This document shows positions 9,282 through 39,199 of a stretch of DNA of 64,000 nucleotides, piece after piece (the first letter of the stretch is position 1; each line of letters begins with the position of its first letter). Where the stretch lies: positions 9,822 to 73,821 of the forward strand of contig CAZHYN010000003.1 of assembly GCA_964536865.1 (NCBI GenBank), in the 5' to 3' direction. Position numbers and translations under genes: made by a program. The DNA is from an uncultured Planctomycetia bacterium. GTDB lineage: Bacteria; Omnitrophota; Gorgyraeia; Duberdicusellales; 4484-171. The notes below the pieces were generated by a model. That model did no database searches, was not told the DNA's origin, and was given only the letters and a program-made list of their open reading frames with translations.

Positions 9282-11023
9282 TCTTGAAGGTATATATACT
9301 CTACCTCTGAGAATGCTCCCCCATAAGCTGTAGGATAAAGATTCCCGAACTTTTCTCTTACTGCATAGATAGAATATGTATTCACCGTATAAATCAACGG
9401 GAGCTTATTGGATGCTATCTTTTGCCATCTATAAAACAGCTTTTTCCTCTCCTCTTCGTCCAGCGTCTTAGCTGAAAGATTAAAAATATCTTCAATCTCC
9501 TTCTCCCACTCATAGAGGGCAACTTTAGTAGGATTCCACATATGAAGTGCTCCTTTATAAGACCAAACATTTTTACCAAAGTAAGGCTCAATACCTCCAG
9601 TTAAACCAATCAGAATCATCTCCCAGTCAAAAGTAGAGACTAACTTATTTACGAGATTATTAAAATTCAAAGGAAGAAAGTTTATTTTCACTCCTATATC
9701 TTCTAAATCCTTCTTTATAAGTGTGGCTATCTTTACTCTTTGAGTATTATCACCATTGGTAAAAAAATTTATCTCTAACTTATGTCCTTGGCTGTCCTCC
9801 AAAATACCATCGCCATCGCGGTCAAAGAAACCTAACTTTTGTAGAATCTTTTTAGCTTTGGTAGGGTCATAAGGATATTTGGTTACATCAGGAGTGTAAT
9901 AAATCTTATTAGCAGGACTTAAAGGTGAATACTGAAGGATTCCTAATCCATTTAAAACCACCTGAATGATTTTTTCTCTATTGATAGCGTAGGAGATCGC
10001 CTTACGGAATTCTTCGCTTTGGAACCAACGAAGTTTATAAGGAACAACAAAAGGTTTTTTAGTGTAAGGGTTTAACTGAGGATTCTGATTTAAAACGAGG
10101 AAGTTAGAACCAAAACTGGGACCAGCATTGTAAATAGAGAAGTTATCTTCTTCCTGTTTTGGTCCTAAAATTGCTAAGTCTTGAGGCCGTAACGAATAAT
10201 AATCAATTTCTCCCTCTAAGAATTTTAGAAGTGCGGTATCTTGATTGGGAAGGATTACAAAGATAATTTCATTTATGTAAGGTAAGTGATTACCACAACT
10301 ATCTTTTTTCCAGTAATAAGGATTTCTTTCTAGAACTACCCTCTCTCCGGGTAGATACTTTTTTAAACGAAAGGGACCTGTACCTACTATCTGGTGAGGT
10401 TTAGCATCCAATCCCATGCTAAAGTTAAACTTACTCTCCTTAACTAAGTGATAGTAACAGTGCTTGGGAAGGATTTCTTGAGAAAGCGCTCGCAAGAAAG
10501 GAGCAAAGACCGAAGGAAGAGTAAACTTTACTCGATAGGTATCAATCTTTTCTACTTTAATCTTTTTCCCCTCAATAGTAAATATATCTCTACTAGAATT
10601 GGGAATCTCTGGGTTATATATTAGATTATTAAAAGTGAAGACAACATCATCAGCAGTAAAATTTTCTCCATCGCTCCATCTTACATCATCTCTTAGATAG
10701 AATATCCAAGTTTTCCCATCTTGGGTTTGCCATTTCTTAGCTAAGTTAGGGAGGACTTCTAAACTTTTAGGATCAACTTTAGTCAATCCCTCAAAAAGTA
10801 AAGAAGTAATCTGAGTAGTAGAGGTTTCCTTAGCTAAAATAGGATTAAAAGACTTAGGATCACTAGTTGCTGGGAGAATTAGCTTTCCTCCACATTTTCC
10901 GCATTCAAACTCGTACTCCTTAAGGGGCTCCTTAAACACAGATTCTGCAACAATAGAGAATATATTTAAGGAGGAAATAAAAAAAAAGGGAGCAAGAAGA
11001 AAGAGTATATTTACTCTTCTCAT
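9278..11023 (-). CDS. oppA: oligopeptide ABC transporter substrate-binding protein (family 5 SBP)
   Basis: 581 aa, N-terminal signal peptide, SBP_bac_5-like sequence. It heads the opp permease/ATPase genes. Confidence 0.8.
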   Translation of the reverse strand: MRRVNILFLLAPFFFISSLNIFSIVAESVFKEPLKEYEFECGKCGGKLILPATSDPKSFNPILAKETSTTQITSLLFEGLTKVDPKSLEVLPNLAKKWQTQDGKTWIFYLRDDVRWSDGENFTADDVVFTFNNLIYNPEIPNSSRDIFTIEGKKIKVEKIDTYRVKFTLPSVFAPFLRALSQEILPKHCYYHLVKESKFNFSMGLDAKPHQIVGTGPFRLKKYLPGERVVLERNPYYWKKDSCGNHLPYINEIIFVILPNQDTALLKFLEGEIDYYSLRPQDLAILGPKQEEDNFSIYNAGPSFGSNFLVLNQNPQLNPYTKKPFVVPYKLRWFQSEEFRKAISYAINREKIIQVVLNGLGILQYSPLSPANKIYYTPDVTKYPYDPTKAKKILQKLGFFDRDGDGILEDSQGHKLEINFFTNGDNTQRVKIATLIKKDLEDIGVKINFLPLNFNNLVNKLVSTFDWEMILIGLTGGIEPYFGKNVWSYKGALHMWNPTKVALYEWEKEIEDIFNLSAKTLDEEERKKLFYRWQKIASNKLPLIYTVNTYSIYAVREKFGNLYPTAYGGAFSEVEYIYLQE

Positions 11024-11340
11024 TCGCCTGAGGGCGGTAAAGAACTTTTACTTTTCTGAGATTCACTCTTTGCAGGAATTTGATGACTTTTCCTCGGTGT
11101 TTCTAAAAGAGATTTACTCTTTTGTTTGGAAAGGTAAGCTAAAGAAATAGAGGTGAGGAAAAAGATTACTACTAGAGTAACTGTTAATTTAACAAAGAAA
11201 GAACTGGTCTTCGTCCCAAAAATTGACTCTACTCCCCCTAAAGCTTCAATTAATCCTCCACTCCTTCCTCGTTGGACGAGAATTATCCCTATTAAAGCTA
11301 AAGAGACTATTATGTGCAGAATTAAAATAAGATCGTACAT
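11020..11340 (-). CDS. secG: preprotein translocase subunit SecG
   Basis: MYDLILILHIIVSLALIGIILVQRGRSGGL... is a typical SecG N-terminus. The position downstream of tpiA is conserved. Confidence 0.8.
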   Translation of the reverse strand: MYDLILILHIIVSLALIGIILVQRGRSGGLIEALGGVESIFGTKTSSFFVKLTVTLVVIFFLTSISLAYLSKQKSKSLLETPRKSHQIPAKSESQKSKSSLPPSGE

Positions 11341-11349
11341 AACTTACCC

Positions 11350-12111
11350 CTAAAGAGCGCCCTTTACGATAGCGATAAAAGAGGAAGCATCTAAAGAGGC
11401 GCCTCCTACTAATGCTCCGTCGATATCCTCCTCTCTCATCAAATCTTTTATATTATTAGGTTTTACACTTCCACCATAAAGAATCCTTAACGAAGAGGCA
11501 CAACCAGTTGAGTATCTCTTCTCTATCCACTCCCTTATAAACTTTTGCACTTCTTCTGCCTGCTGAGGAGTAGCGGTCTTCCCTGTTCCTATTGCCCAAA
11601 CAGGTTCATAAGCAATAGTAAGTTTTAGAATCTTGGCCTCCTCTATACCAAATAGTCCTTTCTCTAACTGGGTAGTTACTACCTCTATAGTTTGATTAGC
11701 CTCTCTTTCCTCTAAGGTCTCACCTACACACAAGATAGGATTTAAACCCTCTTCTAAACTGAGCTTAATTTTCTTGTTAATTACTTCATCGCTTTCCTGA
11801 AAATACTTTCTCCTCTCCGAATGCCCCACTATTACGTAATCGCATCCGCAGTCCTTAAGTTGAGGAGGGGAAACCTCTCCTGTAAATGCTCCTTCTCTGA
11901 TGTAGAAAACATCTTGTGCTCCTAATTTTATATTCGTACCTAAGATCAACTTTCCTACACTCTCTAAAGCAGTAAAGGAAGGACAAACAACAATATCTAC
12001 TTCACTCAAATTAGAAAGGTCTCTTTTTAAATGAGAAACTAACTCTCTAGCTTCTTCGATAGTCTTGTGCATCTTCCAGTTACCAGCAATTAATGGTTTA
12101 CGTCTACTCAT
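11350..12111 (-). CDS. tpiA: triosephosphate isomerase
   Basis: 253 aa with GNWKMH, AYEPVWAIGTGKTAT and GGASL motifs. Confidence 0.95.
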   Translation of the reverse strand: MSRRKPLIAGNWKMHKTIEEARELVSHLKRDLSNLSEVDIVVCPSFTALESVGKLILGTNIKLGAQDVFYIREGAFTGEVSPPQLKDCGCDYVIVGHSERRKYFQESDEVINKKIKLSLEEGLNPILCVGETLEEREANQTIEVVTTQLEKGLFGIEEAKILKLTIAYEPVWAIGTGKTATPQQAEEVQKFIREWIEKRYSTGCASSLRILYGGSVKPNNIKDLMREEDIDGALVGGASLDASSFIAIVKGAL

Positions 12112-21644: not shown

Positions 21645-22244
21645 CTACTTACCTCTCACCATAGGTACGAATCGCACAGGAGCGATGTTTTTTATTTGCA
21701 ATCCTTCTTTATCTTTTATTATTAATTTTAGATATTGAAAATGTTTCCCCATAGGAATAACCATTCTACCTCCTACCTTCAGCTGTTGAACGAGTTTAGA
21801 AGGAATAGAGGAAGGAGCACAGGTCACTATAATAGCATCAAAAGGGGCAAACTCATCCCATCCTAAGAATCCATCTCCACACTTTACTTTAATATTCTGA
21901 TATCCTAATTCTCTTAATCTCTTCTCGGCATTGAGAGCTAAAGGTTCTAAAATTTCGATAGTATAAATTTCCTTAGCTAACTCTGCTAAAACAGCGGTCT
22001 GGTAACCGCTACCTGTACCAATCTCCAACACTCTCTCATCTCCTTCCAACTGAAGAAGTTCGGTCATCAAGGCAACAATATAGGGTTGAGAAATAGTTTG
22101 ATTATAACCAATAGGTAAAGGACTATCAAAGTATGCTAAATTTTTAACTCCTGAAGGAACGAATCTATGACGAGGGACTTTAAGCATCGCTTCTATAACT
22201 CTCTTATCTTTTACTCCCCGAGCAATTATCTGCTCTTCTACCAT
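21645..22244 (-). CDS. pcm: protein-L-isoaspartate O-methyltransferase (copy 1)
   Basis: ...QTISQPYIVALMTELL...VLEIGTGSGYQTAVLA... Start placed at MVEEQ. The upstream extension in the ORF track runs into the structured repeat. Confidence 0.8.
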   Translation of the reverse strand: MVEEQIIARGVKDKRVIEAMLKVPRHRFVPSGVKNLAYFDSPLPIGYNQTISQPYIVALMTELLQLEGDERVLEIGTGSGYQTAVLAELAKEIYTIEILEPLALNAEKRLRELGYQNIKVKCGDGFLGWDEFAPFDAIIVTCAPSSIPSKLVQQLKVGGRMVIPMGKHFQYLKLIIKDKEGLQIKNIAPVRFVPMVRGK

Positions 22245-22310
22245 CCTCTTTCTCAGAGGGAAAAAACTATCTTGAGTATAACCAATGAGGGGAAAAGATA
22301 AAAGACTTAA

Positions 22311-22435
22311 GATTAGTAAACCCCGAACCACGCCTTTCCAGGCGTGGCTTTGGAGTATACCCTTCGGGTCTTTTGATATGCATTCATCCACGGCTTTACC
22401 TCGCCCTTTCAAGGAAAGGGCGAGGTGGCTTTCTG
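22311..22435 (-). repeat. GC-rich structured repeat element, copy A (candidate ncRNA/cis-RNA; in the 5' leader of pcm)
   Basis: About 125 nt, bounded by CCCCGAACCAC...GTGGTTCGGGG. Three internal hairpins, including a perfect 12-bp stem CCTCGCCCTTTC/GAAAGGGCGAGG. A second copy sits at 27998-28121 with compensatory changes. Confidence 0.6.
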
Positions 22436-22866
22436 TGGTTCGGGGTAAACTCTTCCTCACTGTCTTAAAACCTCGCTATTGAAATAACAAATACTTACTA
22501 GCCTAACTAATGTGATTTATTATATCATAAATTGTATACTTTTAATCTAAACTTACTGATACATAACAAAAAGTTAAATCTCTACTATAGTTATGGAAAG
22601 AATAAACTCAACAATAGTCTTTTTATGATATTTATTACATTCTTACTTAGAAATATAAAGAAAAGACTATCGATTAACTAGAAAGCACCTCGGAAGGTAA
22701 AACTGGTTACTAAAGCTCAAAACTTTCTATTTGTCTATTGAAAACATTCCTCTCTGTTATACGTAATAGAACAACTCACCATTTAGATTTAGAAAGAGTT
22801 TAGAGGATTAAATTCATAAAAATGACTATCCTTATATCTCTTCTATTATTGTAGGGGATATCTTAG

Positions 22867-23289: not shown

Positions 23290-23521
23290 TTTACCTCCTA
23301 GATAACTTAAGAATACTTACGAAATTTAAATATTGTATTCATAAATCTTTAAATCACTATCTAACATAACAAACCCCTTTGTCTCAAAAACCCCTTCTTA
23401 AAAAACTTTTGATACCAGAATATTTTAGAGAGGTCTATTATTGAGAGAAATATCTAGAAGATCCCCACCCATCCCACCAACATTGACAGATTCTTCTTTT
23501 TTTCTTTCTAAAGAAAAATTT

Positions 23522-24888: not shown

Positions 24889-26463
24889 TCAGGAAGTCAA
24901 TAATTGCTTTGCTTTCTGTAACTTCTCAAAGAAAAATTCCTTATATAGCTGTACAGTCCAAGATCTTACAATTCTTTGGCCAATGATACGAAAGACATAA
25001 TTACGAGATCTTCGACACCATTTCTTCCATCCTACTCTGATCCTGTTAAAATAGAAAGGTAAACTAATAATAGAAATCAAATTCAACAAAAATATGAATA
25101 AGTATCTTATATGATAAAAATGTCCCATAATTTTTCGTATGGCAGACTGCATCCCTTCAGGAGTAAGAGGATAATCTGGTTTAAAGAGAGGAAAAGTGCC
25201 ATCATAGTATTCCCAGCCCAATACAGAGCGAGGATATACTCGGCTGTTAGAGAGGAGTCTTGCTCTTAACTCCGTACCAGGTAGGGGGATAGGCAAGAGT
25301 ACCTGGATGGTATCAATCTTTGCTTTTTTTATAAAATTCCTGAAATATTTTATTCTTTCTTCAACCCTCATTCTAAAATTAAGTTTCTCTTTTGTGGGAT
25401 AACCAAAAATAAACATACCATGTATGAAGAATCCAAATCTGTGAAAAACCCTAGTCAATTCTAACATATCTCTGGATCTTAAAGACTTATTCATAGCTTT
25501 AAGCTCTTCATCTATTGGGGACTCAAAACCAATACTTACAACCTTGATATTAGCTTGCCTCATTGCCGTGAGTAACTCTTCATCCTTAGCTTTATCTAAG
25601 CGGATTTGAACTGTAAATCTCAAAGCCACACCCCTTGATGTTTGATATTCTGCTAACATTTTACATAGTTTTAAAGTTTCGTCGCGGTCCTGACCAAATA
25701 GGTCATCGATAATAAAGAATTCTCTTGCACCCATTGTCTTTACAAGCTTATCAACCTGCCTAATTAGTTTTTGGCTGGATGCATAGCGAGGCTTACCTTT
25801 AACTGTACAAAACTCACAATTCATTTTACATCCTCGAACTCTTCCCACGGGAAACAGTTTTATCCTAGCGTATTTAAGAAGAGAGAAATCAGGAAGAGGA
25901 AGGTCATCAAGATTTTGGATAGGAATCCGTTGAGTGGTATAAATTATTTTGTCCTCCTTCCTAAAAGCAATGCCAGGTATCGAAGACAAATCACCTCCTT
26001 CAGAAAAAGCACAAAGGAGTTCTCTTATACTCATCTCTCCCTCTCCTCGGACGATACAATCTATACCTGAAAATAAAGCCTCGGGTATTGTTTCATCCAC
26101 AAAGTGTTGACCACCAGCAATAGTTATTACTCCTCTCTGTTTATAAAATTTAGTCAATTCATAGATTCGAGGTAAAGAACAGGTTAATCCTCCATAGAAC
26201 CCTACCACGTCCGCTGGTTTCTGCTTCTGAAGTAATTCATGGTTTATGTTACCTGAAAAATTTCTTAGATGGGGATTACGAAAATTATTTTCATCGATAA
26301 CCTCTACATCCCATCCTTTGACTTCCTGTGCAGAAACAGCAATGTAGAGAGGTCCCAAAGTAGTTGTTTTGTTAGTAACAAAAGAATATACATTAAATCT
26401 AGAATAAGCCGGGATGATTATACGTAACAAATATTTTTTCTTGGACTCTAATGTATATTTCAT
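24889..26463 (-). CDS. B12-binding domain radical SAM protein
   Basis: 524 aa. An N-terminal cobalamin-binding-like domain is followed by a CKMNCEFC (Cx3Cx2C) radical SAM core. Confidence 0.7.
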   Translation of the reverse strand: MKYTLESKKKYLLRIIIPAYSRFNVYSFVTNKTTTLGPLYIAVSAQEVKGWDVEVIDENNFRNPHLRNFSGNINHELLQKQKPADVVGFYGGLTCSLPRIYELTKFYKQRGVITIAGGQHFVDETIPEALFSGIDCIVRGEGEMSIRELLCAFSEGGDLSSIPGIAFRKEDKIIYTTQRIPIQNLDDLPLPDFSLLKYARIKLFPVGRVRGCKMNCEFCTVKGKPRYASSQKLIRQVDKLVKTMGAREFFIIDDLFGQDRDETLKLCKMLAEYQTSRGVALRFTVQIRLDKAKDEELLTAMRQANIKVVSIGFESPIDEELKAMNKSLRSRDMLELTRVFHRFGFFIHGMFIFGYPTKEKLNFRMRVEERIKYFRNFIKKAKIDTIQVLLPIPLPGTELRARLLSNSRVYPRSVLGWEYYDGTFPLFKPDYPLTPEGMQSAIRKIMGHFYHIRYLFIFLLNLISIISLPFYFNRIRVGWKKWCRRSRNYVFRIIGQRIVRSWTVQLYKEFFFEKLQKAKQLLTS

Positions 26464-27004
26464 GTTATCTTAACACTTAAACAGTAGCTTAATCCTAAAA
26501 TCTCTAAAGCAATCATTGTGATTATCCAGACTATTTTTAAATAAAATAAATTTGTTACTATTAAGCTGGAATTTGATTTAGAGCTCCCTCTACTTAGAAG
26601 GTTAGTTACTCCTATCCAAGAACATAGATTCACAAGGTTTGACTTAATTGATTTCTTCGTTATAAATCTCCTATAATGACTAAGGTTACCATAAACCTCA
26701 TTACAAATAGGGAATACCTAAAGATTAGGTATTATATATAGAAGCAATTTTAAAGATGGATGGACTAACTACTTCAAATATAAAGAGTTGTAGTTGATAT
26801 CCCTATTTATCGCCACCCTAAAATGAACTTCTTATATTAACTTTAAGGCTAAATTATTCCTACACTATACACCCTAATACTTTTCAGTACTATTGTCAAG
26901 ATAAAAATGTTTGGAGTATGTGTCAAGTATTTGGGGGTAGCTTTTTTAATGTTAGTTTGTCAAAAGGTTTAATGTAGACCTAACCCAGCCTGTCTATCAT
27001 TCAT

Positions 27005-27154
27005 CGTCTTTTAACGTTTTCACGTTCATACGTTTATACGTTCCCACGTTCATACGTTTACACATTTTTACGTTCTCACGTTTACACGTTCCCATGTTTA
27101 TACGTTCTCACGTTTACACGTTTATACGTTTTAACGTTTATACGTTTTAACGCC
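27005..27154. repeat. tandem array of about 19 x 8-bp units (ACGTTYWY core)
   Basis: ...TAACGTTT TCACGTTC ATACGTTT ATACGTTC CCACGTTC ATACGTTT ACACATTT TTACGTTC TCACGTTT ACACGTTC CCATGTTT ATACGTTC TCACGTTT ACACGTTT ATACGTTT TAACGTTT ATACGTTT TAACG... Strict 8-bp periodicity; no reading frame. Confidence 0.85.
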
Positions 27155-27997
27155 TTTGACATATTATTTTAAAAACATTTTCCCAAGTTAAAGGGCATCC
27201 AGAAAAAATATAACAAAATTTATTGCGATAGCAATTAAAATTGTTAACATTTGATTCCTAAGCTAAAGGTTTATTTATTAAAGGTTTGTTCCTTCTCTCC
27301 GGCTAAAATCCTTAATCTTATGCAACATTTCAGTTTCAAACAAAAATGTTGCACATCATTTTTATTTCCAGTGAATCCCTTTTACAAATTTCCCATTATT
27401 CACAAAAAAGAAAAACTACTACTATTCTTCCCTTCCTACTACCTCACTAAATTTTACACTAACCAACAAAATTTCTGAAGATGCAGTTCGTTAGGTAAAT
27501 TTTATGATATTCCAAATTCTTCAGCTCAACCTCGCAGGTTAATTTGGTTGTTTCCACTCCTGGGGTGGAAATTGCAAATTTTTATCTCTGCCATAAAAGC
27601 TTCAGATAATTTGTAAAACAGAATTATAGTTAAATACATTTATCTTTTTGCTATTGCAATGTAAAGACGATAGAGACCTCCGTTGTTAAAGAAGATACCT
27701 TCATTTCTTCAGGTATAGGTGGAAAAGGTTGGGCTCTTTTTATTGTAGAGATTGCTTCTTTATTTAAGATATTAAAACTTGATGACTTTATAATTTTGAT
27801 ATCTCTGGCAAAACCTGTAGATAAATATGAATACCTACTGCTAAAATATGTGCTACAGGACTTCTTGATTCTTTACATAACTTTTCTGCTTCCTCTAATT
27901 TGCTTTCCAGCAATAATTTCTTTACCTGAGCAGTTAGATTACCTACATTGGTCTTTATCCTGTAAAAGTGCCACAGTTTTCCTAAAACAATAACAAA

Positions 27998-28121
27998 CCC
28001 CGAACCACAGGTTTATACCCGTGGCTTTGGGATGCCTCCTTCAGGTCTTTGATATACATTCATCCCCGACTTTACCCCGCCCTTTCAAGGAAAGGGCGGG
28101 GTGGCTTTCTGCGGTTCGGGG
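27998..28121 (-). repeat. GC-rich structured repeat element, copy B
   Basis: Co-linear with copy A over about 124 nt. Base-pair covariation is seen in three hairpins. Remaining mismatches become G-U wobbles only when the element is read on the minus strand. Confidence 0.6.
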
Positions 28122-28361
28122 TAAAAGCTATTACTGAACATAACAAAATCGGCTAAATTAAAAGGCCACCTTTTAAGAAGAATTTGAGCATAAAAACCTT
28201 TTTTCTCCGGTTATCTATTTAACAACGGCTGGAGGGTTATTTTTTATAAATGATTGCCTCTTTACCTAAAACTTCATTGATGCCTCACCAAAAAAGTATT
28301 AAGGTATTATCTCCATTTTCTTTGATACTCTTCTTAAAAAATGAGGCAAATTAAACTTCTT

Positions 28362-29378
28362 CTAAAATGTCCACATCCCTCCACATTTAATCACAAAATC
28401 CTCCTTCCAACCTTTCTTAGCCTTATAGTCCCAATCAATTCCTACAAATACTTTTTTATGATGTCCAGCCTCTCCTCTTAATGGAGAATATACAAATTTT
28501 AAAGCCAAAGCATGCCTATAACGTTCAATATGTGATTTATATTGAGGGTTACCCGGAGCTGTTACTCTTATCTTTTCTTCAAATTCATTAGGTTTAATTT
28601 GTATCCATCCTATAGGACCACCTACTAAGGTAAATTTTTTATCAGGAAAAGGGGAATATTCTACAAAGAACTTATAGCCAATTATATCTCCAACTTCCTC
28701 ATCAGATTTACCCCAACCACTCACATCTCTTCTTTCTCCTATCAAATCATAAAAAATATGGTTACAAAGTTCAACTTTATCAGTAAGCTCTTCGGTAGAT
28801 AATAAAGCTATTCTTAACACATTAGCTCCTCTGCTCTCATTTCCTAACTCATTTTTTAATCCTTCTTTTTCAGTAACATCAAATTTATAACCTAACCCAA
28901 TTGCTGCATCTATATTTTTGAAAATTCCTATAGTCTGTTTATCTATAAATTTATATTTTCCTGAAATCCAAATTTCGGTTAAACCATTATCTTTTTTAGT
29001 GCACCATTTACCTGAACCCGGCCTTTTACCTCCTTTGCAATTTAGCTGGTGAGTCTCATACTTTCTATCTATCCATTCATAAGTAAAGAGAAGCCCTACA
29101 TCAAACTTATCAGTTAAACCATATCCTAAACGAAGGTCTATCTTATCTCTTTTAGAATTCCAGCCCGAAGGCAAATCTTCTATTTTTCCTGTAGCAGGAG
29201 ACCAGTACTTTTTATGTTCAATATGCCTGTAAAGCACTTTTGGCCAGAATTCTCCTTTCTTTAATCCATGGGGGCAACCGGTTACTCTTTCTGCAATTGC
29301 GTTCTCTGAAAACAAAAAGGAAATTACAATTGTTACCACCCCAAACAAAAATACCGAGTTTCTAAACAGATATCTCAT
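28362..29378 (-). CDS. putative outer-membrane beta-barrel protein
   Basis: Signal peptide (MRYLFRNSVFLFGVVTIVISFLFSENAIA), an alternating amphipathic pattern, and a C-terminal ...GGMWTF ending in Phe. Confidence 0.5.
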   Translation of the reverse strand: MRYLFRNSVFLFGVVTIVISFLFSENAIAERVTGCPHGLKKGEFWPKVLYRHIEHKKYWSPATGKIEDLPSGWNSKRDKIDLRLGYGLTDKFDVGLLFTYEWIDRKYETHQLNCKGGKRPGSGKWCTKKDNGLTEIWISGKYKFIDKQTIGIFKNIDAAIGLGYKFDVTEKEGLKNELGNESRGANVLRIALLSTEELTDKVELCNHIFYDLIGERRDVSGWGKSDEEVGDIIGYKFFVEYSPFPDKKFTLVGGPIGWIQIKPNEFEEKIRVTAPGNPQYKSHIERYRHALALKFVYSPLRGEAGHHKKVFVGIDWDYKAKKGWKEDFVIKCGGMWTF

Positions 29379-32979: not shown

Positions 32980-33055
32980 CTTTGTCAAGAAAAAATTTGA
33001 ATACTTTCCCATTCTTTGTGCAACTTTTTTAAGATAAGAGAAGCTCTTTGAAAAG

Positions 33056-34024
33056 GTGGAGGTCTTAAGGGCAAAATGCCTGAATCCCTCATGCCCTATA
33101 AGGTCTTTTATCATACTTCCCGAAGGCATAGAGAAATTTGCCCGGGCCACAGAGAGACTAAAGAAGGAAGCGTTGTGTGGAATCATAAATGATAATTCCA
33201 CTACCCCCAGGATTTCCCGGCGCTTTGAAAGGGTGTTTAACACCACCGGCTCCAAGTCTTCCATTGACCGTTGGAAGCATGAGGCGGCGGATAAGCTGAG
33301 TGCCAAGGAGATCATCGCAAGATTGAACTTCTCCGGTATCCTCTGTATTGATGAATATAAACCCAAGCGGTATAAGGGCTATGACTTAATAGACTCTGAT
33401 GCTAAAACCTCAAGAATACTCTATCTTGAAAAGGCCTATGGTTTAGGCAGGGGCGTTGTCAAAGAGCATTTTCAGACAATAAAATCGCTGGGTATTGAAC
33501 CTTGGGCAATAATCTTTGATATGCGGGCCTGCTTCCCTAAAGCAGCCAAAACTGTCTTCGGCAAAGATATTATCATCCAGCATGACTACTTCCATGTAAT
33601 GAAGATAATCCACTACCACCTAAATAGGGCGATGGCTGAATATAGAAGAATCTTAAAAGAGCAAGGCATAGATACTTTAGATATCTGGCTTGCCCGCTGG
33701 GTTATCCTAAAGAATATGGAACGCTGGAGTTTTAAAGAGTGCAGAATCATCGAAAATCTTCTTGCCAAATATCAGGGAACAACCATTGAAGATATCCTTA
33801 TCTTAAAACAAAAGATTAGAGATATATTCATTGCGTCTAAAAGCCAACAGGAAGCCTATTTAAAACGGGATGCTCTTACCAAAGAAAACTGGTATTTTAA
33901 GAATAAACACTTTGCCAATATCATTAAATTCTTAAATACACCATACTTCAGATACATAACCACATTCTTAGATCATCCAGAGATACCCAAGAGTGGCAAT
34001 TCAGAGAATGTAATCCGTACCTGA
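33056..34024 (+). CDS. ISL3-family transposase, copy 1 (lacks the N-terminal zinc finger; stop before the conserved C-terminal peptide)
   Basis: ILCIDEYKPKRYKGYDLIDSD, the ISL3 DDE block. Ends ...GNSENVIRT-TGA, and the conserved C-terminal piece MEKVRYGF...KLYQIYRYLGGK continues in frame at 34031-34129. Confidence 0.6.
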   Translation: MEVLRAKCLNPSCPIRSFIILPEGIEKFARATERLKKEALCGIINDNSTTPRISRRFERVFNTTGSKSSIDRWKHEAADKLSAKEIIARLNFSGILCIDEYKPKRYKGYDLIDSDAKTSRILYLEKAYGLGRGVVKEHFQTIKSLGIEPWAIIFDMRACFPKAAKTVFGKDIIIQHDYFHVMKIIHYHLNRAMAEYRRILKEQGIDTLDIWLARWVILKNMERWSFKECRIIENLLAKYQGTTIEDILILKQKIRDIFIASKSQQEAYLKRDALTKENWYFKNKHFANIIKFLNTPYFRYITTFLDHPEIPKSGNSENVIRT

Positions 34025-34287
34025 AGGCAGATGGAGAAAGTAAGATATGGATTTAAGACAGAGAGAGGAAGGCAGAACCACTTGAAACTGTATCAGATTT
34101 ACCGCTATCTGGGAGGTAAGTTAGACTAGGGACAATTTTTCTTATCTAACTCGTTAATCATCAAGTAGTTATCGTGAAAAATTGCACAAAATTTAGAAGC
34201 TTTCCCAAATCTATCGCAAATATTTTATATAAGGCCCTTGCTTCTGTCATAAGTTAAGATAGCCTTCTTTTAAAAAGGAGGCTATTT

Positions 34288-35262
34288 ATGGGGAAAGAAG
34301 CAAGAGTAAAAGTTATTAAGAGTCGTGTTCCTAAATGGGTTATCTGCCCATTTTGTGGAGTAAAACAACCTTTTAAGAAAGAAAGAGGAAATTGGCGTAT
34401 GGTAAAAGATATTAACCTTGATAAATCTCTCCTTCTTAAGGTCCAAACTATTTATGCTAAATGCTTAAATCCTCATTGTCAAAGAAATAGCTTTGCTTTA
34501 CCAAATGGTTTTGAAAAATATCAAAGAGCAACAGATAGATTTAAACAAGAAGCTTTGAGTGGTTTAATCTGTGATAACTCTACCTTACCCAGAGTAGCTA
34601 AAAGATTTAATCGCATATTTAATACTACTGGCTCTAAATCTACCCTTGATAGATGGAAGCGCAAAGAGGCAGATAAATATGATTTTAAACAGATTATCTC
34701 TAAATTAGGTTTCGGTGGCATTCTCTGTATTGATGAGTATAAGCCTAAACGCTCTAAAACCTATGACTTAATAGCTTCTGATAGATTAACTGAGAGGATA
34801 CTCTATTTGGAGAATCTGCCTAAAATATATTCTCCTAAAGCAAAAGGTGGTATTGTTGCTAAAGGCTTAGTGGAAGATTTTGCTTATAAATTAAAGGATT
34901 TTGGCTTAAATCCTTTTGGGTGTATAGTGGATTTAGCCAGTGTCTACCCTAAACAGCTCAAAAAAGTTGAGCCTGGTGTAATTATCCAGTTTGATTACTT
35001 CCATATAGTTAAGATAGTATACTGGTATCTTAAGAATGCTATTAAGAGCTTCAGGGTATCCTTAAGAGAAACTGATGAAGTAGCTTATTCTGATATTTGG
35101 AAGCATAAATGGCGAATATTAAAAAACTTTGATAAACTATCCCTTAAAGAACATCTAATCTTAGAATACCTTATGAAGCGTTATAAGGCAACTTTAATAG
35201 AAAAAGTATTAATTTTCAAAGAGCAGGTAAGGGATATATTTAATTTATCTCAAACCCCTTAA
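34288..35262 (+). CDS. ISL3-family transposase, copy 2 (zinc finger present; frameshift and in-frame TAG before the C-terminal peptide)
   Basis: N-terminal CPFCG...C..HC knuckle and an ILCIDEYKPKRSKTYDLIASD block. After ...LSQTP the reading continues in the +1 frame, hits an in-frame TAG near 35441, then the MEKVRYG...KLYQIYHYLGGKV peptide runs to about 35536. Confidence 0.6.
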   Translation: MGKEARVKVIKSRVPKWVICPFCGVKQPFKKERGNWRMVKDINLDKSLLLKVQTIYAKCLNPHCQRNSFALPNGFEKYQRATDRFKQEALSGLICDNSTLPRVAKRFNRIFNTTGSKSTLDRWKRKEADKYDFKQIISKLGFGGILCIDEYKPKRSKTYDLIASDRLTERILYLENLPKIYSPKAKGGIVAKGLVEDFAYKLKDFGLNPFGCIVDLASVYPKQLKKVEPGVIIQFDYFHIVKIVYWYLKNAIKSFRVSLRETDEVAYSDIWKHKWRILKNFDKLSLKEHLILEYLMKRYKATLIEKVLIFKEQVRDIFNLSQTP

Positions 35263-35646
35263 AGAGGCTTATCAGAGAAGAGAGGAACTTATAAAAGAGC
35301 ATTACTGGAGAGATTCTTATCATTTATCTAAGATCGTTAAGTTTTTATCTACTTACAAATTTGAGTATATGATTAGCTACCTTAAATATCCTAATATACC
35401 CCGTTCAGGTAATTCTGAAAGCTATATAAGAGTATGGCGATAGATGGAGAAAGTAAGATATGGGCTTACCCCTAAAGGTAGACAAAATCATCTTAAATTA
35501 TACCAGATTTACCATTATTTGGGTGGAAAAGTTTAACAGACAAAAATTTTAAGCATAACTTACTGGTTATCAAAGAGTAAAAGATATTTTTTGCGATAAA
35601 ATTGGGAAAGCTTCGAAGGTCCACTATAGCTTTCTACATAACCTTT

Positions 35647-35761
35647 TATTCACCGCACCCTTTAACTCTACCTACTGTCATTTTAAAAACTTTAGTCTTA
35701 AACAACTCTTCTTTGACTGCTTCTAATCTATCTGGCTGAATAATAGCTTCTATTTTTTCAT
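35647..35761 (-). pseudogene. glnK: P-II nitrogen regulatory protein (GlnK/GlnB) remnant: frameshift in an A-run and truncation after about 38 codons
   Basis: ATG at 35761 with a GGAGGTG RBS. With one extra A in the A6 run it reads MKKIEAIIQPDRLEAVKEELFKTKVFKMTVGRVKGCGE*, a P-II N-terminus. The sequence ends 31 bp from the ISL3 IRR. Confidence 0.6.
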
Positions 35762-35780
35762 CTTTATTCACCTCCTTCGA

Positions 35781-37029
35781 TTAGAGTGCTTCTTCAGGAT
35801 ATGCTTCGATTCTGTGGATACTTAAATCTGCTTCCATTATCTCTTCTTGTTCAGAAAGTCTTATTCCTACAGTAGATTTCAATAGATAGTAAATAGTAAA
35901 TCCACTTGCAAGAGCAAAAACAATTGCTATTAAATTTCCTATAAGTTGAGCAGTTAAGTTTACTCCGTCTACTCCCCCCAAGTGCTTTTATTCCAAAAAT
36001 TCCACAGGCAATCCCTCCCCAAGAACCAGCTACACCATATAGAGGCCATACCCCTAAAACGTCATCAATTTTAAGAATTTCAGTTTCAATATGAAAATAT
36101 GAAAAAGTTTTACGAAGATTAAACCAGCTATTCCTTTAATAATTAAAGCACCGAGAGGATGTACCACATCAAATCCAGAACATATAGCAATAAGTTCAGC
36201 CAAAGCACCGTTATGGATAAAGGCAGCATCATTTTTAGAAATAATTAGTGTTACAACTATCCCACCTACTATTACTATAAGAGAATTTACTGCTACTAAA
36301 CTAGAGATGTTAGTCAATTTTCCTGTGCTCATCACATTAAAAACAAACCACCCTACACATAAAAGCCAACTTCCTAGAGCAAGAAAAGGTATGTTACTTA
36401 CCCTTGTAGGATGCTTCTTCTACCAATGTATCTCTTGATATGAGGATTTAAAAGGAAAATAGCAGGAAGAGCGAGCCAACTTCCCATAGAGTACACTACT
36501 ACTAAACCAGCATAATCATGAAAGGGAACGCCTGTTAGATTCGCTAACCATGAATCAGGTTGTCCTAGAAAAGTATTTTTTCCCTACACAAAGGATTCAA
36601 AAAGGGGATAAATAAATCCTACCAGTACTCCTCCTGCTAATGATTGAGCCCAGAATTTTGCTTGTTCCACGATTCCTCCTGAAATTATTGCTAGAATACA
36701 GGCAGCAAAAGTCAGTAGAAAGAAGAAATGGATAAGGTTAAATCCTTAACTTCCATTCAATAATTGCTGAGCAGTTTTAAAGAAAGAGATACCATAAGCA
36801 ATAGGGAAACTGATGAAAAAGTAAGCAACTGTAGAGATGCCCCAATTAATGATAATTTTTACTAAAGCATTAACTTGATTTTTCTTCCTTACCGAACCAA
36901 CTTATAGGAAAACAAAACCAGTATGTATAGAAAAAATTAGAGTTGCTCTCATTAATAGAAAAAAGATATTTCCACTATGGAGAAGGTTTCCTAAAGCCTT
37001 GGATAATGCACCTACATCCGTTTTTTCAT
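35781..37029 (-). pseudogene. amtB: ammonium transporter (Amt family) disrupted by frameshifts and in-frame stops
   Basis: Amt-like TM segments appear across at least 3 frames (WFVFNVMSTGKLTNISSLVAVNSLIVIVGG..., C-terminal GIRLSEQEEIMEADLSIHRIEAY). In-frame TAA/TAG stops are present, e.g. FL*VGSVRKKN where Amt has FYGGLVRKKN. The start needs A7 but has A6. Confidence 0.7.
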
Positions 37030-37385
37030 CTCTCTTTTACCATAAAATTGTAAGTATTTTTGCTTGTGTATTTAGAAAGTATAATTAATCTTTGGGTTAC
37101 CAATAATCCCTTTTCCATTATTTATTTCTTTTATCTCTTTTTATGTTTATTACATACATTTTTATCAGAATATTGAACCGGTTTAAAAGGATTATTTATT
37201 TGACTAAAATTCATATCTATTCTATATAAAAAATAAAAGCATTTTCTAAGCTATTTTTGCTTAAAAAAGGATGTCTCTGCCTAGCAAAAAAAGCCCACAC
37301 TTTCTCACTCGGCCCCCTTTGCCTTATTAACCTCTTTGTTACCTACCTTATAACATTTAAAGAACATTTTGCCAAAAGGAATCTT

Positions 37386-38087
37386 TTATTTTTTTCTTAC
37401 TTCATAGGCAACAATGATTGCTTCTGCGATATTCTTCATAGGCAGGCGTCTGTCCATACTAGATTTCCTAATTAAATTGTAAGCTTCCTCCTCTGTTAGA
37501 TTTTCCTCTTTCATAAGGATCCCTTTTGCTTTTTCAATCTTTTTTCGTGCCTCCAGTTCTTCTTGGATGATTTTAGTTTTAACCATAAGCTCTGTATTCT
37601 CAATTGCTATTGCTGCTTGATTTGCTACTGTACTCAAAAGAGCGATATCACTTTTTGTAAACTTGTAAGGAGTAGTTGTGTAGCAATTTACTACACCTAT
37701 TACTTTGTTCTTCACCATCATAGGAACACTTAACATAGAGATTAATCCTTCTTTTTTTGCTAAAGCCTTTTCCTTATATTTGGGTTCTTTCGACACATCT
37801 AAAATTACTATGGGTTTTCTTTCCTTTGCTACCAGTCCCACTATACCTTCTCCAACTTTTAGACTCCTTTCTTTCAGATAATCCTTACTCATTGCCTGTG
37901 TAGCTCTTATCTTTAACTCTTTGGTTTCATCATCTAAGAGCCAAAGAGAACAAATTTTTGTCTTCATCACATTGGCAGTCACAGTGACAATAAGTTTGAG
38001 AACATCTTCAAGGTAGAGATCGCTGGTTATTGCTTTACTTATTTTATTTAAGGTTTCTAAGTAGTTTTTATAAGAGACCTTTCTCAT
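37386..38087 (-). CDS. GAF-ANTAR RNA-binding antitermination regulator
   Basis: N-terminal GAF domain. The C-terminal EELEARKKIEKAKGILMKEENLTEEEAYNLIRKSSMDRRLPMKNIAEAII is a textbook ANTAR domain. It sits directly upstream of the amt leader. Confidence 0.75.
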   Translation of the reverse strand: MRKVSYKNYLETLNKISKAITSDLYLEDVLKLIVTVTANVMKTKICSLWLLDDETKELKIRATQAMSKDYLKERSLKVGEGIVGLVAKERKPIVILDVSKEPKYKEKALAKKEGLISMLSVPMMVKNKVIGVVNCYTTTPYKFTKSDIALLSTVANQAAIAIENTELMVKTKIIQEELEARKKIEKAKGILMKEENLTEEEAYNLIRKSSMDRRLPMKNIAEAIIVAYEVRKK

Positions 38088-38097
38088 TTTTCTCTTT

Positions 38098-38574
38098 TTA
38101 ATTAAAGAGGAACCACAACCTTATTACTCCTTGGGTAGCTAATTCTACTATGATTCCTGCCGTCATCACTCCTAGTAAGATGCTTAGTATGGTTTTTAAT
38201 ATATTGAATCTTAATAAGTTAGCTATAAAAGTCCCTGTCCAAGCTCCTGTAGTGGGAAAAGGAATACCTACAAAAAGTATTACTCCTATTACTCCATAAG
38301 TAGAGATGAGTTTTGACTTTTTCTCTGCAATAGTAAACCATTGTTTTAGAAAATTTCCTAAAAAGGGAACGTCTTTTAATTTGTGGAAGAGATAACTAAA
38401 AAATAGATACAGGGGAATAACTGGCAACATATTGCCGATAATAGAGAGAAGATAACTTTTTAAAGGAGAAAGTCCTTTAGCTATAGCAAAAGGGATAGCT
38501 CCTCTTAATTCTACTATAGGAGAAGCAGCTAAAGCGATTGTAATAATTTCACTTTCTTTCAACATATTTTCCAA
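38098..38574 (-). CDS. small membrane protein, possibly the small multidrug export (PF06695-like) family
   Basis: 158 aa, 4 TM helices, VELRGAIPFAI motif. The family assignment is tentative. Confidence 0.4.
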   Translation of the reverse strand: MENMLKESEIITIALAASPIVELRGAIPFAIAKGLSPLKSYLLSIIGNMLPVIPLYLFFSYLFHKLKDVPFLGNFLKQWFTIAEKKSKLISTYGVIGVILFVGIPFPTTGAWTGTFIANLLRFNILKTILSILLGVMTAGIIVELATQGVIRLWFLFN

Positions 38575-39199
38575 TTAAAGGAACAAAAATGCAACTTCCT
38601 GCACTTCTTCTCTTAACTTCTCTATCAGTGATTTTATCTGCTATAATAAGCTCTTGTTGAAAAGCGCCACCTATAGGCATTACTAATCTTCCCCCAATTC
38701 TTAATTGTTGTATTAAAGGAGAGGGGATATCTTTAGCAGCAGCAGTGACAATTATTTTGTCAAAGGGTGATTCTTCTTCCCATCCCAAAGTACCATCGCC
38801 TATCCTTATTTTTACTTTAAACCCTAAAGATTTTAAAATTTGCTGAGCTTTCTCAGCCAGTTGAGGAATTCGTTCCACAGTAAATACTTTACATCCTAAA
38901 TAGGCTAATATAGCTGACTGATAACCACTGCCTGTACCTATTTCTAATATTTTTTCATCTTTTTCAGGATCAAGGAGTTGGGTCATTAAAGCTACTATAA
39001 ACGGTTGAGATATTGTTTGTCCCCATCCTATAGAGAGAGGATAATCTCCATAAGCGTAGCTTCGTTTCTCTTCAGGTATAAAAAGATGACGCGGAATATT
39101 TTTAAAAGCTTCTAGAATTTTTTTGCTATTTATAGCTCGGGGTATCAATTGCTCTTCAATCATCCTTTTTCTAGAAAGCATATAGTTATTTTCTTTCAT
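38549..39199 (-). CDS. pcm: protein-L-isoaspartate O-methyltransferase (copy 2)
   Basis: ...QTISQPFIVALMTQLL...ILEIGTGSGYQSAILA... 216 aa. Confidence 0.8.
   Translation of the reverse strand: MKENNYMLSRKRMIEEQLIPRAINSKKILEAFKNIPRHLFIPEEKRSYAYGDYPLSIGWGQTISQPFIVALMTQLLDPEKDEKILEIGTGSGYQSAILAYLGCKVFTVERIPQLAEKAQQILKSLGFKVKIRIGDGTLGWEEESPFDKIIVTAAAKDIPSPLIQQLRIGGRLVMPIGGAFQQELIIADKITDREVKRRSAGSCIFVPLIGKYVERK

Follow-up and report, generated by a model that had tools for sequence, protein, structure and literature searches.

Introduction

The dual-hexaloop mechanism of ANTAR proteins has been tied to nitrogen genes, and motifs of this kind upstream of genes for P-II proteins, ammonium transporters and glutamine or glutamate synthases were found by covariance models in 2012 (PMC3369931). 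Here we describe a locus on the minus strand of a 64-kb stretch of contig CAZHYN010000003.1, in the following called the window, where the gene of a one-component GAF-ANTAR regulator is followed by a leader with a putative dual-hairpin ANTAR target and by the remnants of amtB and glnK, coding for an ammonium transporter and a P-II protein. The window has a G+C content of about 33% and its top protein matches are Candidatus Omnitrophota assemblies; L-numbered loci are contigs of relatives that encode homologues of the regulator. With a probability of roughly 0.75 we regard the locus as what is left of a circuit that controlled ammonium uptake by ANTAR-type transcription attenuation.

The only one-component ANTAR proteins that have been studied are NasR, with a NIT sensor, and PAL, with a PAS-LOV sensor (PMC7496416). 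NasR from Klebsiella oxytoca, acting at the nasF leader, is built like the window protein from an N-terminal sensor, a long helix and a C-terminal ANTAR domain, and its target likewise consists of two A1/G4 hairpins in a nitrogen-gene leader, which compete with a terminator as the motif does in relatives of the window (PMC3369931, PMC7496416). It differs in using its NIT domain to respond to nitrate or nitrite and in serving nitrate assimilation, whereas the window protein has a GAF domain, presumably for the internal nitrogen status, and would serve ammonium assimilation (amtB-glnK, glnA, gltB, gdh, carB). In Geobacter sulfurreducens, antitermination by GnfR was described in 2010; for nifH it was demonstrated by deletion of gnfK and gnfR, and for glnK and amtB it was deduced from their terminator-like leaders (PMC2995071). 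The GnfK/GnfR system is thus similar in that ANTAR antitermination was proposed at nitrogen leaders including those of glnK and amtB, but GnfR is controlled by phosphorylation (REC domain and kinase GnfK) and stands under the sigma-54 regulator GnfM, whereas the window protein carries a GAF domain and has no partner kinase gene adjacent. EutV/EutW from Enterococcus faecalis, the defining system of the motif, shows the same P1 and P2 A1/G4 hexaloops, with P2 overlapping the terminator as in relatives of the window, but EutV is a two-component response regulator and its system serves ethanolamine use.

The initial annotation of this DNA had called a GAF-ANTAR protein gating ammonium transport a plausible but uncharacterised circuit. 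This interpretation is supported, but only the GAF-type sensor is unstudied, as ANTAR control of glnK and amtB had been proposed earlier (PMC2995071, PMC3369931). In the sections of PMC3369931 considered here, the regulators belonging to the nitrogen regulons predicted there are not identified as GAF-ANTAR proteins. The RNA motif and the output domain are canonical ANTAR, and that ANTAR proteins control nitrogen genes had been established before; what is added is a concrete regulon and RNA target for GAF-ANTAR proteins, a common architecture of which we found no characterised member in PMC3369931 and PMC7496416. The gene of the antiterminator NitR, implicated in the control of ammonia assimilation, lies just after glnA in Clostridium acetobutylicum and C. 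saccharobutylicum (mentioned in PMC4676874). Among metagenome-assembled genomes of Clostridia, glnA lies directly upstream of the GAF-ANTAR homologue in two loci (L043, L048) and about 3 kb upstream in two others (L054, L055). We take NitR as a possible relative of the window regulator, a lead in which homology is presumed.

A dual-hairpin ANTAR target in the leader

As the initial annotation had anticipated for a folded leader, two short hairpins with A1/G4 hexaloops, P1 and P2 (Table 1), are present between the regulator gene and amtB. They begin 44 nt past the regulator stop codon and are joined by the 4-nt linker AUAA. The P2 loop is an A1/G4 hexaloop, AAAGGG, closed by a C-G pair and accompanied by one extra G, which gives either a bulge or the heptaloop AAAGGGG. 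A1 and G4 are the ANTAR-binding determinants of such hexaloops as defined for EutV, NasR and AmiR (PMC3369931); they are invariant in 18 of 18 aligned motif instances, and the P2 equivalents that follow the regulator gene in L001, L010, L011, L013 and L015 read AGC/GGC-AAAGAA-GCU/GCC. The leader thus carries a canonical, if putative, ANTAR target, and an ANTAR protein is encoded in the same genome.

A strict scan (stems of at least 4 bp, exact hexaloops) had passed over this site, as P2 has a 3-bp stem and the extra G; a relaxed scan detected it. Filtering loosely for terminators gave too much noise (140 matches versus 54 in shuffled sequence), so that covariance models were used instead. Model R1 was built from 18 hand-collected instances, and R2 is a leave-one-out model built without the window sequence. 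With R2 the site at 37311-37341 is the sole strong match in the window (27.9 bits, E 0.0019; runner-up 15.3 bits), and R1 scores it at 31.9 bits. A second window match at 23372-23400, upstream of a ferritin-like gene (13-16 bits), was taken as noise since it is without a U-tract. When the leader was compared with Rfam 15, only chance snoRNA-like matches were obtained, none of them relevant even at E = 10; at the gathering score no relevant family was found in the window, L001, L003 and L005, only rRNA and tRNA (L005), and a curated model of the motif may be absent from Rfam. An alternative hairpin, UGUUAU-AAGGUAG-GUAACA (37341-37355, minus strand), has a 7-nt loop with A1/G4 and would be incompatible with P1, with whose 5' arm it overlaps; the upstream portion of this hairpin, AAAUGUUAU, is also kept in L069.

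P2 and the first terminator-like element of the leader exclude each other. The helix of this element has 12 bp, four of them G-U, and a 15-nt loop, and it takes in the U7 tract. The P1 and P2 conformation alone reaches about -4 kcal/mol versus -14.7 kcal/mol for the competing helix, an energy gap as expected for a protein-stabilised structure. The leader aligns to that of L069 across two tandem attenuators, and this alignment reveals the damage in the window. In the first attenuator, where L069 has the terminator GAGCCCUGC-A7-GCAGGGUU, the window has lost apical pairs of the stem. In the second, the P2-like element AAGGC-AGAGGC-GCCUU of L069 has become UAGGC-AGAGAC-AUCCU with loss of pairing; it continues with the A/U-rich hairpin UUUUUUAAGC-AAAAAUA-GCUUAGAAAA and a U-rich tail, and the basal GC pairs seen in terminator 2 of L069 are missing. 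A generic terminator scan of the region detected none in the leader. Because the terminator stems are degraded, the local circuit would be vestigial in the window lineage, and the attenuator appears to be decaying together with the loss of amtB-glnK.

The motif and its gene neighbourhoods in relatives

For comparison we used 58 homologue loci from species-representative genomes and several metagenomic contigs. In 724 kb of related loci R1 found 26 matches with E <0.5, all 26 on the strand of the regulator, and these sit upstream of gltB, glnA, gdh, amtB, carB, a porin gene or porin-amtB-glnK operon, a sigma-like gene (sigma-70 region 4) and the regulator itself. Additional sites, 89 nt upstream of intact amtB, were found with R2 in L071 and L072 (33.9 bits, E 1e-4). 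Across 33 distinct sequences 95.6% of the cells in both helices were paired and 59 cells were compensatory, values as high in 0 of 500 shuffles and opposed by at most 44% paired cells in slid controls, the alignment having been fitted to the model so that the counts lean to structure. In the relatives the P2 loop or its 3' arm doubles as the 5' arm of a terminator that is rich in GC (-6 to -21 kcal/mol) and directly followed by a U-tract, as is typical of ANTAR targets. The 'GGAYRATGGCGTYC' box of L003 was rejected as a separate motif, as it represents the P2 and terminator part of the ANTAR motif (GAC-AAWGGC-GUC).

The neighbourhood of the regulator in the relatives is consistently one of ammonium assimilation. 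Just upstream lies glnA, co-directional or divergent. Immediately downstream, many Desulfobacterales and some Omnitrophota carry gltB, and also close by are gdh, carB, a gene for a NadE-type NAD synthase and amtB-glnK. Intact orthologues of the operon next to the regulator, which the initial annotation had suggested to look for, do exist. In L069 all parts are intact, namely the regulator (79% identical), a 207-nt leader that can be aligned with that of the window, amtB (73% identical to the reconstructed pseudogene) and glnK. L071, like L072 a carrier of intact amtB-glnK, has the order regulator, sigma-like gene, motif, amtB, glnK, two glnA and gltB, and in L013 and L011 the regulator is followed by motif and terminator, sigma-like gene, porin-like gene, amtB and glnK, with a second motif present.

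The sigma-like gene codes for a protein of about 175-196 aa with sigma-70 region 4 as its sole match and stands between attenuator and porin or amtB-glnK in many relatives (L011 1051-1572, L013 1958-2494, L014 3203-3736, L015 8943-9467, L040 10650-11189, L071 5243-5833). It could add another level of regulation, for instance as a small factor of sigma-like or anti-sigma-like type that is itself controlled by ANTAR. Genes of the DUF1846 family recur near nitrogen-assimilation genes (L010 7046-7963, L001 9520-11037, L003 10507-12018, L067 6455-7972), and this recurrence, together with the ANTAR motif directly before the gene in L010, suggests a role of DUF1846 in nitrogen metabolism. Motif and terminator are found upstream of the regulator gene itself at L008 2256-2330 and L015 4933-5010, which argues for positive autoregulation in some relatives. 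L008 shows three consecutive A1/G4 hexaloop hairpins, and L015 encodes a pair of GAF-ANTAR paralogues that share 60% and 74% identity with the window protein. Downstream of the regulator L015 also encodes, beside separate glnK and amtB, an amino-acid-permease family protein of 625 aa with a fused C-terminal P-II domain (9789-11666).

The regulator and its GAF sensor

The regulator had been described as intact in the initial annotation, and this is confirmed by both Pfam domains and by its orthologues. The GAF domain covers aa 26-162 (E 6e-23) and the ANTAR domain (PF03861) aa 175-225 (E 5.9e-20; 71.2 bits against a curated cut-off of 27.3), with sequence matches of the ANTAR part to 6wsh, Rv1626 (1s8n), NasR (4akk) and AmiR (1qo0). 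Among 6492 homologues the best have the same length, making the regulator full length, and share 76-99% identity with it, a degree of conservation that is unusual for a regulator; homologues at 76-86% identity are nearly all from Omnitrophota-type assemblies. An AlphaFold2 model (predicted local distance difference test score, pLDDT, 85) comprises a GAF fold, a 51-residue helix (145-195) and the helices 199-213 and 217-232, with pLDDT values of 83-96 in the helical C-terminal part. A long coiled-coil-like linker helix between sensor and ANTAR bundle, as sought in an ANTAR protein, is therefore predicted. The gene starts 10 nt past the stop of the preceding gene for an Sm_multidrug_ex family protein and, because of this short gap, probably shares a transcript with it.

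The GAF domain groups with those of PtsP (EI-Ntr) and NifA in sequence and structure searches, which answers the question raised earlier of whether it belongs with ligand-binding GAF domains. It matches PtsP (PRK11061, 4.4e-24) and NifA (1.8e-19) in NCBIfam, its best PDB sequence matches are the PtsP GAF structures 3ci6 and 3trc (E 1e-17), and the top structural neighbours of the model found with Foldseek are PtsP GAF domains with a target-normalised TM-score (TMt) of 0.82-0.83. The outputs of these proteins differ, being PEP-phosphotransferase (PEP, phosphoenolpyruvate) or sigma-54 AAA+ activator instead of the RNA-binding ANTAR domain of the window protein. The GAF domain of NifA binds 2-oxoglutarate. 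That of EI-Ntr binds glutamine (PMC4848567). Based on the similarity to both and on their ligands, our best guess is that a nitrogen-status signal, glutamine and/or 2-oxoglutarate, is most likely the ligand of the regulator. GAF domains are known to bind many ligands, and the cAMP-bound GAF domain of Lcd1 (5w10) also ranks among the top structural matches, so that a different signal, such as a cyclic nucleotide or the redox state, might be coupled to the assimilation genes. We consider this unlikely, since the PtsP/EI-Ntr and NifA domains provide the closest matches in both sequence and structure, the whole regulon is devoted to ammonium assimilation and the regulator gene typically adjoins glnA.

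Proposed circuit and alternative explanations

From the intact relatives the following ancestral state may be envisaged. Transcription leaving the regulator gene would meet one or two intrinsic terminators, and the GAF-ANTAR protein, probably as a dimer, would bind P1 and P2 in the nascent RNA. As the terminator would use the P2 loop and 3' arm for its own 5' arm, it would be blocked from forming by the bound protein and RNA polymerase would continue into amtB-glnK. The GAF domain would report the nitrogen status, with read-through expected under nitrogen limitation. By identical motifs the same protein family would control a wider regulon of glnA, gltB, gdh, carB, porin-amtB-glnK and sometimes its own gene. 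In the window genome the local target has died, with amtB and glnK mutated, glnK cut by an ISL3 element and the terminator stems eroded. The regulator has stayed intact, presumably since other targets, located outside the window, still depend on it.

Several points weigh against such a circuit or qualify it. In the relatives amtB-glnK is one target among many, and glnA or gltB neighbours the regulator more often. In L065, which encodes a 99% identical regulator, the attenuator is followed by an array of clustered regularly interspaced short palindromic repeats (CRISPR) and not by amtB, and the motif precedes DUF2490 in L001 and DUF1846 in L010. Because of these three downstream neighbours, the motif travels with the 3' end of the regulator gene, independent of what follows. 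In the window, the stem directly upstream of U7 reaches only -2.6 kcal/mol, compared with the -6 to -21 kcal/mol of the relatives, and with this weak stem and the extra G in P2 the local switch may never have been efficient or may already be inactive. The A/T-rich stretch of about 260 nt before amtB could house a separate promoter; promoter-like sites in this spacer were not more frequent than expected by chance, and no remnants of sigma-like or porin-like genes of the L013 type were found in it. The identity of the GAF domain to PtsP and NifA is only 26-28%, and the ligand is not fixed by such similarity. Finally, RNA binding, GAF ligand and direction of the response are all inferred.

The constant position of the motif, 30-45 nt past the regulator stop regardless of the downstream gene, together with the long spacer before amtB in the window, would also be expected if hairpins and U-tract were simply the regulator's own 3' terminator or an mRNA-stabilising structure, with amtB-glnK expressed from its own promoter and the adjacency incidental. 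We regard this as improbable, since the A1/G4 motif with covarying stems also occurs far from regulator genes, upstream of amtB (L071 5883-5912, L040 16238), glnA (L011 4940), gltB and gdh, since a plain terminator requires neither P1 nor conserved loop bases, and since the order regulator-leader-amtB-glnK is intact in L069. That the regulator controls translation by occluding a ribosome-binding site, as with mycobacterial ANTAR RNAs, is hardly credible, for although repression at the level of translation is known from actinobacterial ANTAR proteins (bioRxiv 10.1101/660928; PMC8164766), the motif is located 50-290 nt upstream of start codons in window and relatives, and in the latter it overlaps GC-rich hairpins and U-tracts, the signature of transcription attenuation.

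Transcription attenuation by the GAF-ANTAR protein therefore remains the preferred reading of the locus, and its value lies more in the picture obtained for the family, in which a highly conserved regulator of Omnitrophota and other anaerobes can be assigned a regulon of ammonium assimilation, than in the decayed locus itself. More tentatively, and with somewhat less than even odds, GAF-ANTAR proteins might be the principal nitrogen-status regulators of Omnitrophota and of some Desulfobacterales and Clostridia, with the GAF domain binding glutamine or 2-oxoglutarate and the whole regulon being controlled via RNA antitermination alone. If true, they would be an RNA-level counterpart of NtrC, GlnR or NtcA, and the window would show regulon pruning, with the regulator retained while amtB-glnK and its attenuator decay. 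This suggests how uncultivated Omnitrophota may sense and respond to nitrogen without classical DNA-binding regulators, and the intact leaders of L069 and L071 make the proposal directly testable.

Decay of the amtB-glnK operon

The order of regulator, leader, amtB and glnK on the minus strand was borne out as initially annotated, and amtB is likewise followed by glnK on one strand in L069, L070, L071 and L013. The amtB remnant covers aa 2-410 of the 410-aa AmtB of intact Omnitrophota orthologues, with 65-74% identity after frame-corrected reconstruction and 63-73% per tblastn segment (P0121, L069). An "extreme decay" of amtB, as suggested by about 30% identity to the distant AmtB proteins of L011, L013 and L015, was dismissed on account of these values for the true orthologues P0121 and L069. 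Its distribution over at least three frames with TAA and TAG stops, as stated in the initial annotation, can now be itemised as three substitution-type stops (TAA for Glu, TAG for Trp and one further TAA) and at least four frameshifts. The latter comprise A6 for A7 behind the start codon at 37029, a shift near 36410, and differences in run length at about 36075 (A4 versus A5) and about 35990 (G6 versus G5).

Close adjacency of the two genes also holds, with a gap of about 19 nt instead of the 17 nt given before. Of glnK, aa 2-38 are 81% identical to GlnK from L069. The stop after 38 codons near the ISL3 end was correctly recognised; it is a Gln-to-TAA change at 35646-35648, about 28 nt and not 31 bp from the end of the insertion sequence (IS). 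It is not the only lesion, as an A6-for-A7 frameshift after the ATG, a contraction in an A-run and the IS cut were also detected, and codons go on in another frame up to the IS. By these lesions amtB and glnK are both pseudogenes, leaving an amtB-glnK operon without intact frames.

In both genes the start codon (amtB 37027-37029, glnK 35759-35761) is followed by A6, where A7 would restore the frame. Of the other frameshifts, two shorten A5 to A4 and one has G6 in place of G5, a pattern left either by slippage-prone decay or by homopolymer miscalls. With five frame changes being one-base homopolymer differences (A6/A7 after both starts, A4/A5 twice, G6/G5), the decay might be a sequencing or assembly artefact and amtB-glnK functional. 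This is very improbable in view of four substitution-type stops where the orthologous residue is Glu, Trp or Gln, the replacement of the 3' half of glnK by an IS bounded by 28-nt inverted repeats, about 60 other window genes with uninterrupted frames and the sister strain L065, which is without the operon at this site.

L065 shares the eroded leader up to about position 37231 of the window and then departs. As it has the CRISPR array in the place of amtB, the operon is being lost from the window lineage by more than one route. The array (L065 925-1089) consists of 28-nt repeats GTTCACTGCCGCACAGGCAGCTTAGAAA, which we take to be type I-F-like, and 32-nt spacers. No repeat of this type was found in the window; the leader common to L065 and the window contains AGCTTAGAAA, identical to the 3' end of the L065 repeat.

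Insertion sequences and neighbouring region

Table 1. Features of the regulator-amtB-glnK locus and the adjoining insertion sequences (window positions).
Feature	Position	Strand	Evidence
GAF-ANTAR one-component regulator gene, intact, 233 aa	37386-38087	minus	ORF (open reading frame), Pfam, homologues
P1 hairpin UAAC-AAAGAG-GUUA, 4 bp, hexaloop A1/G4	37328-37341	minus	relaxed scan; covariance models
P2 hairpin GGC-AAAGGG(G)-GCC, 3 bp	37311-37323	minus	relaxed scan; covariance model
Terminator-like element 1, GCAAAGGGGGCC pairing with GGCUUUUUUUGC	37284-37322	minus	folding energies, L069 alignment
Second, degenerate attenuator	37228-37283	minus	alignment with L069 leader
A/T-rich spacer from attenuators to amtB	37030-37227	minus	no coding remnant detected
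amtB pseudogene, three reading frames	35781-37029	minus	Pfam PF00909 on fragments, tblastn, reconstruction
glnK (P-II) pseudogene remnant, about codons 1-49 of 113	35618-35761	minus	Pfam P-II 4.5e-07 (PF00543), tblastn
ISL3-family element copy 2	34193-35617	plus	Pfam DDE_Tnp_ISL3 (PF01610), inverted repeats
ISL3-family element copy 1, diverged from copy 2	32997-34192	plus	Pfam, repeat pairs

The glnK remnant ends directly at the right inverted repeat of ISL3 copy 2, whose 28-nt repeats (34193-34220 and 35590-35617) are 89% complementary and whose transposase frame is interrupted (324 aa and a 30-aa tail ORF). The transposase of copy 1 is likewise split (322 aa and 32 aa), and the right end of this copy abuts copy 2 and appears truncated at the left inverted repeat of the latter. 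The two copies are arranged head to tail, and in both the transposase is divided into a long ORF and a short one for the C-terminus, which starts with MEKVRYG. Beyond the pair the 3' half of glnK is missing, with a gene for a DtxR-family iron-dependent repressor and feoB found there instead. The locus thus offers a natural case of a regulator that outlives a target, with operon, attenuator and IS copies having decayed to different degrees.

A further patch of the window that has decayed or been rearranged is seen at 26463-28362, where 1.9 kb are without an ORF of at least 100 aa. It includes an imperfect tandem array of TTTACACG with about 17 copies (27010-27147) and a fragment of a protein-isoaspartate methyltransferase (PCMT) gene (28124-27985, minus strand; aa 5-51), which is 85% identical to the intact copy at 21645-22460. 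This copy and a second PCMT paralogue in the window (38549-39199) are 49% identical.

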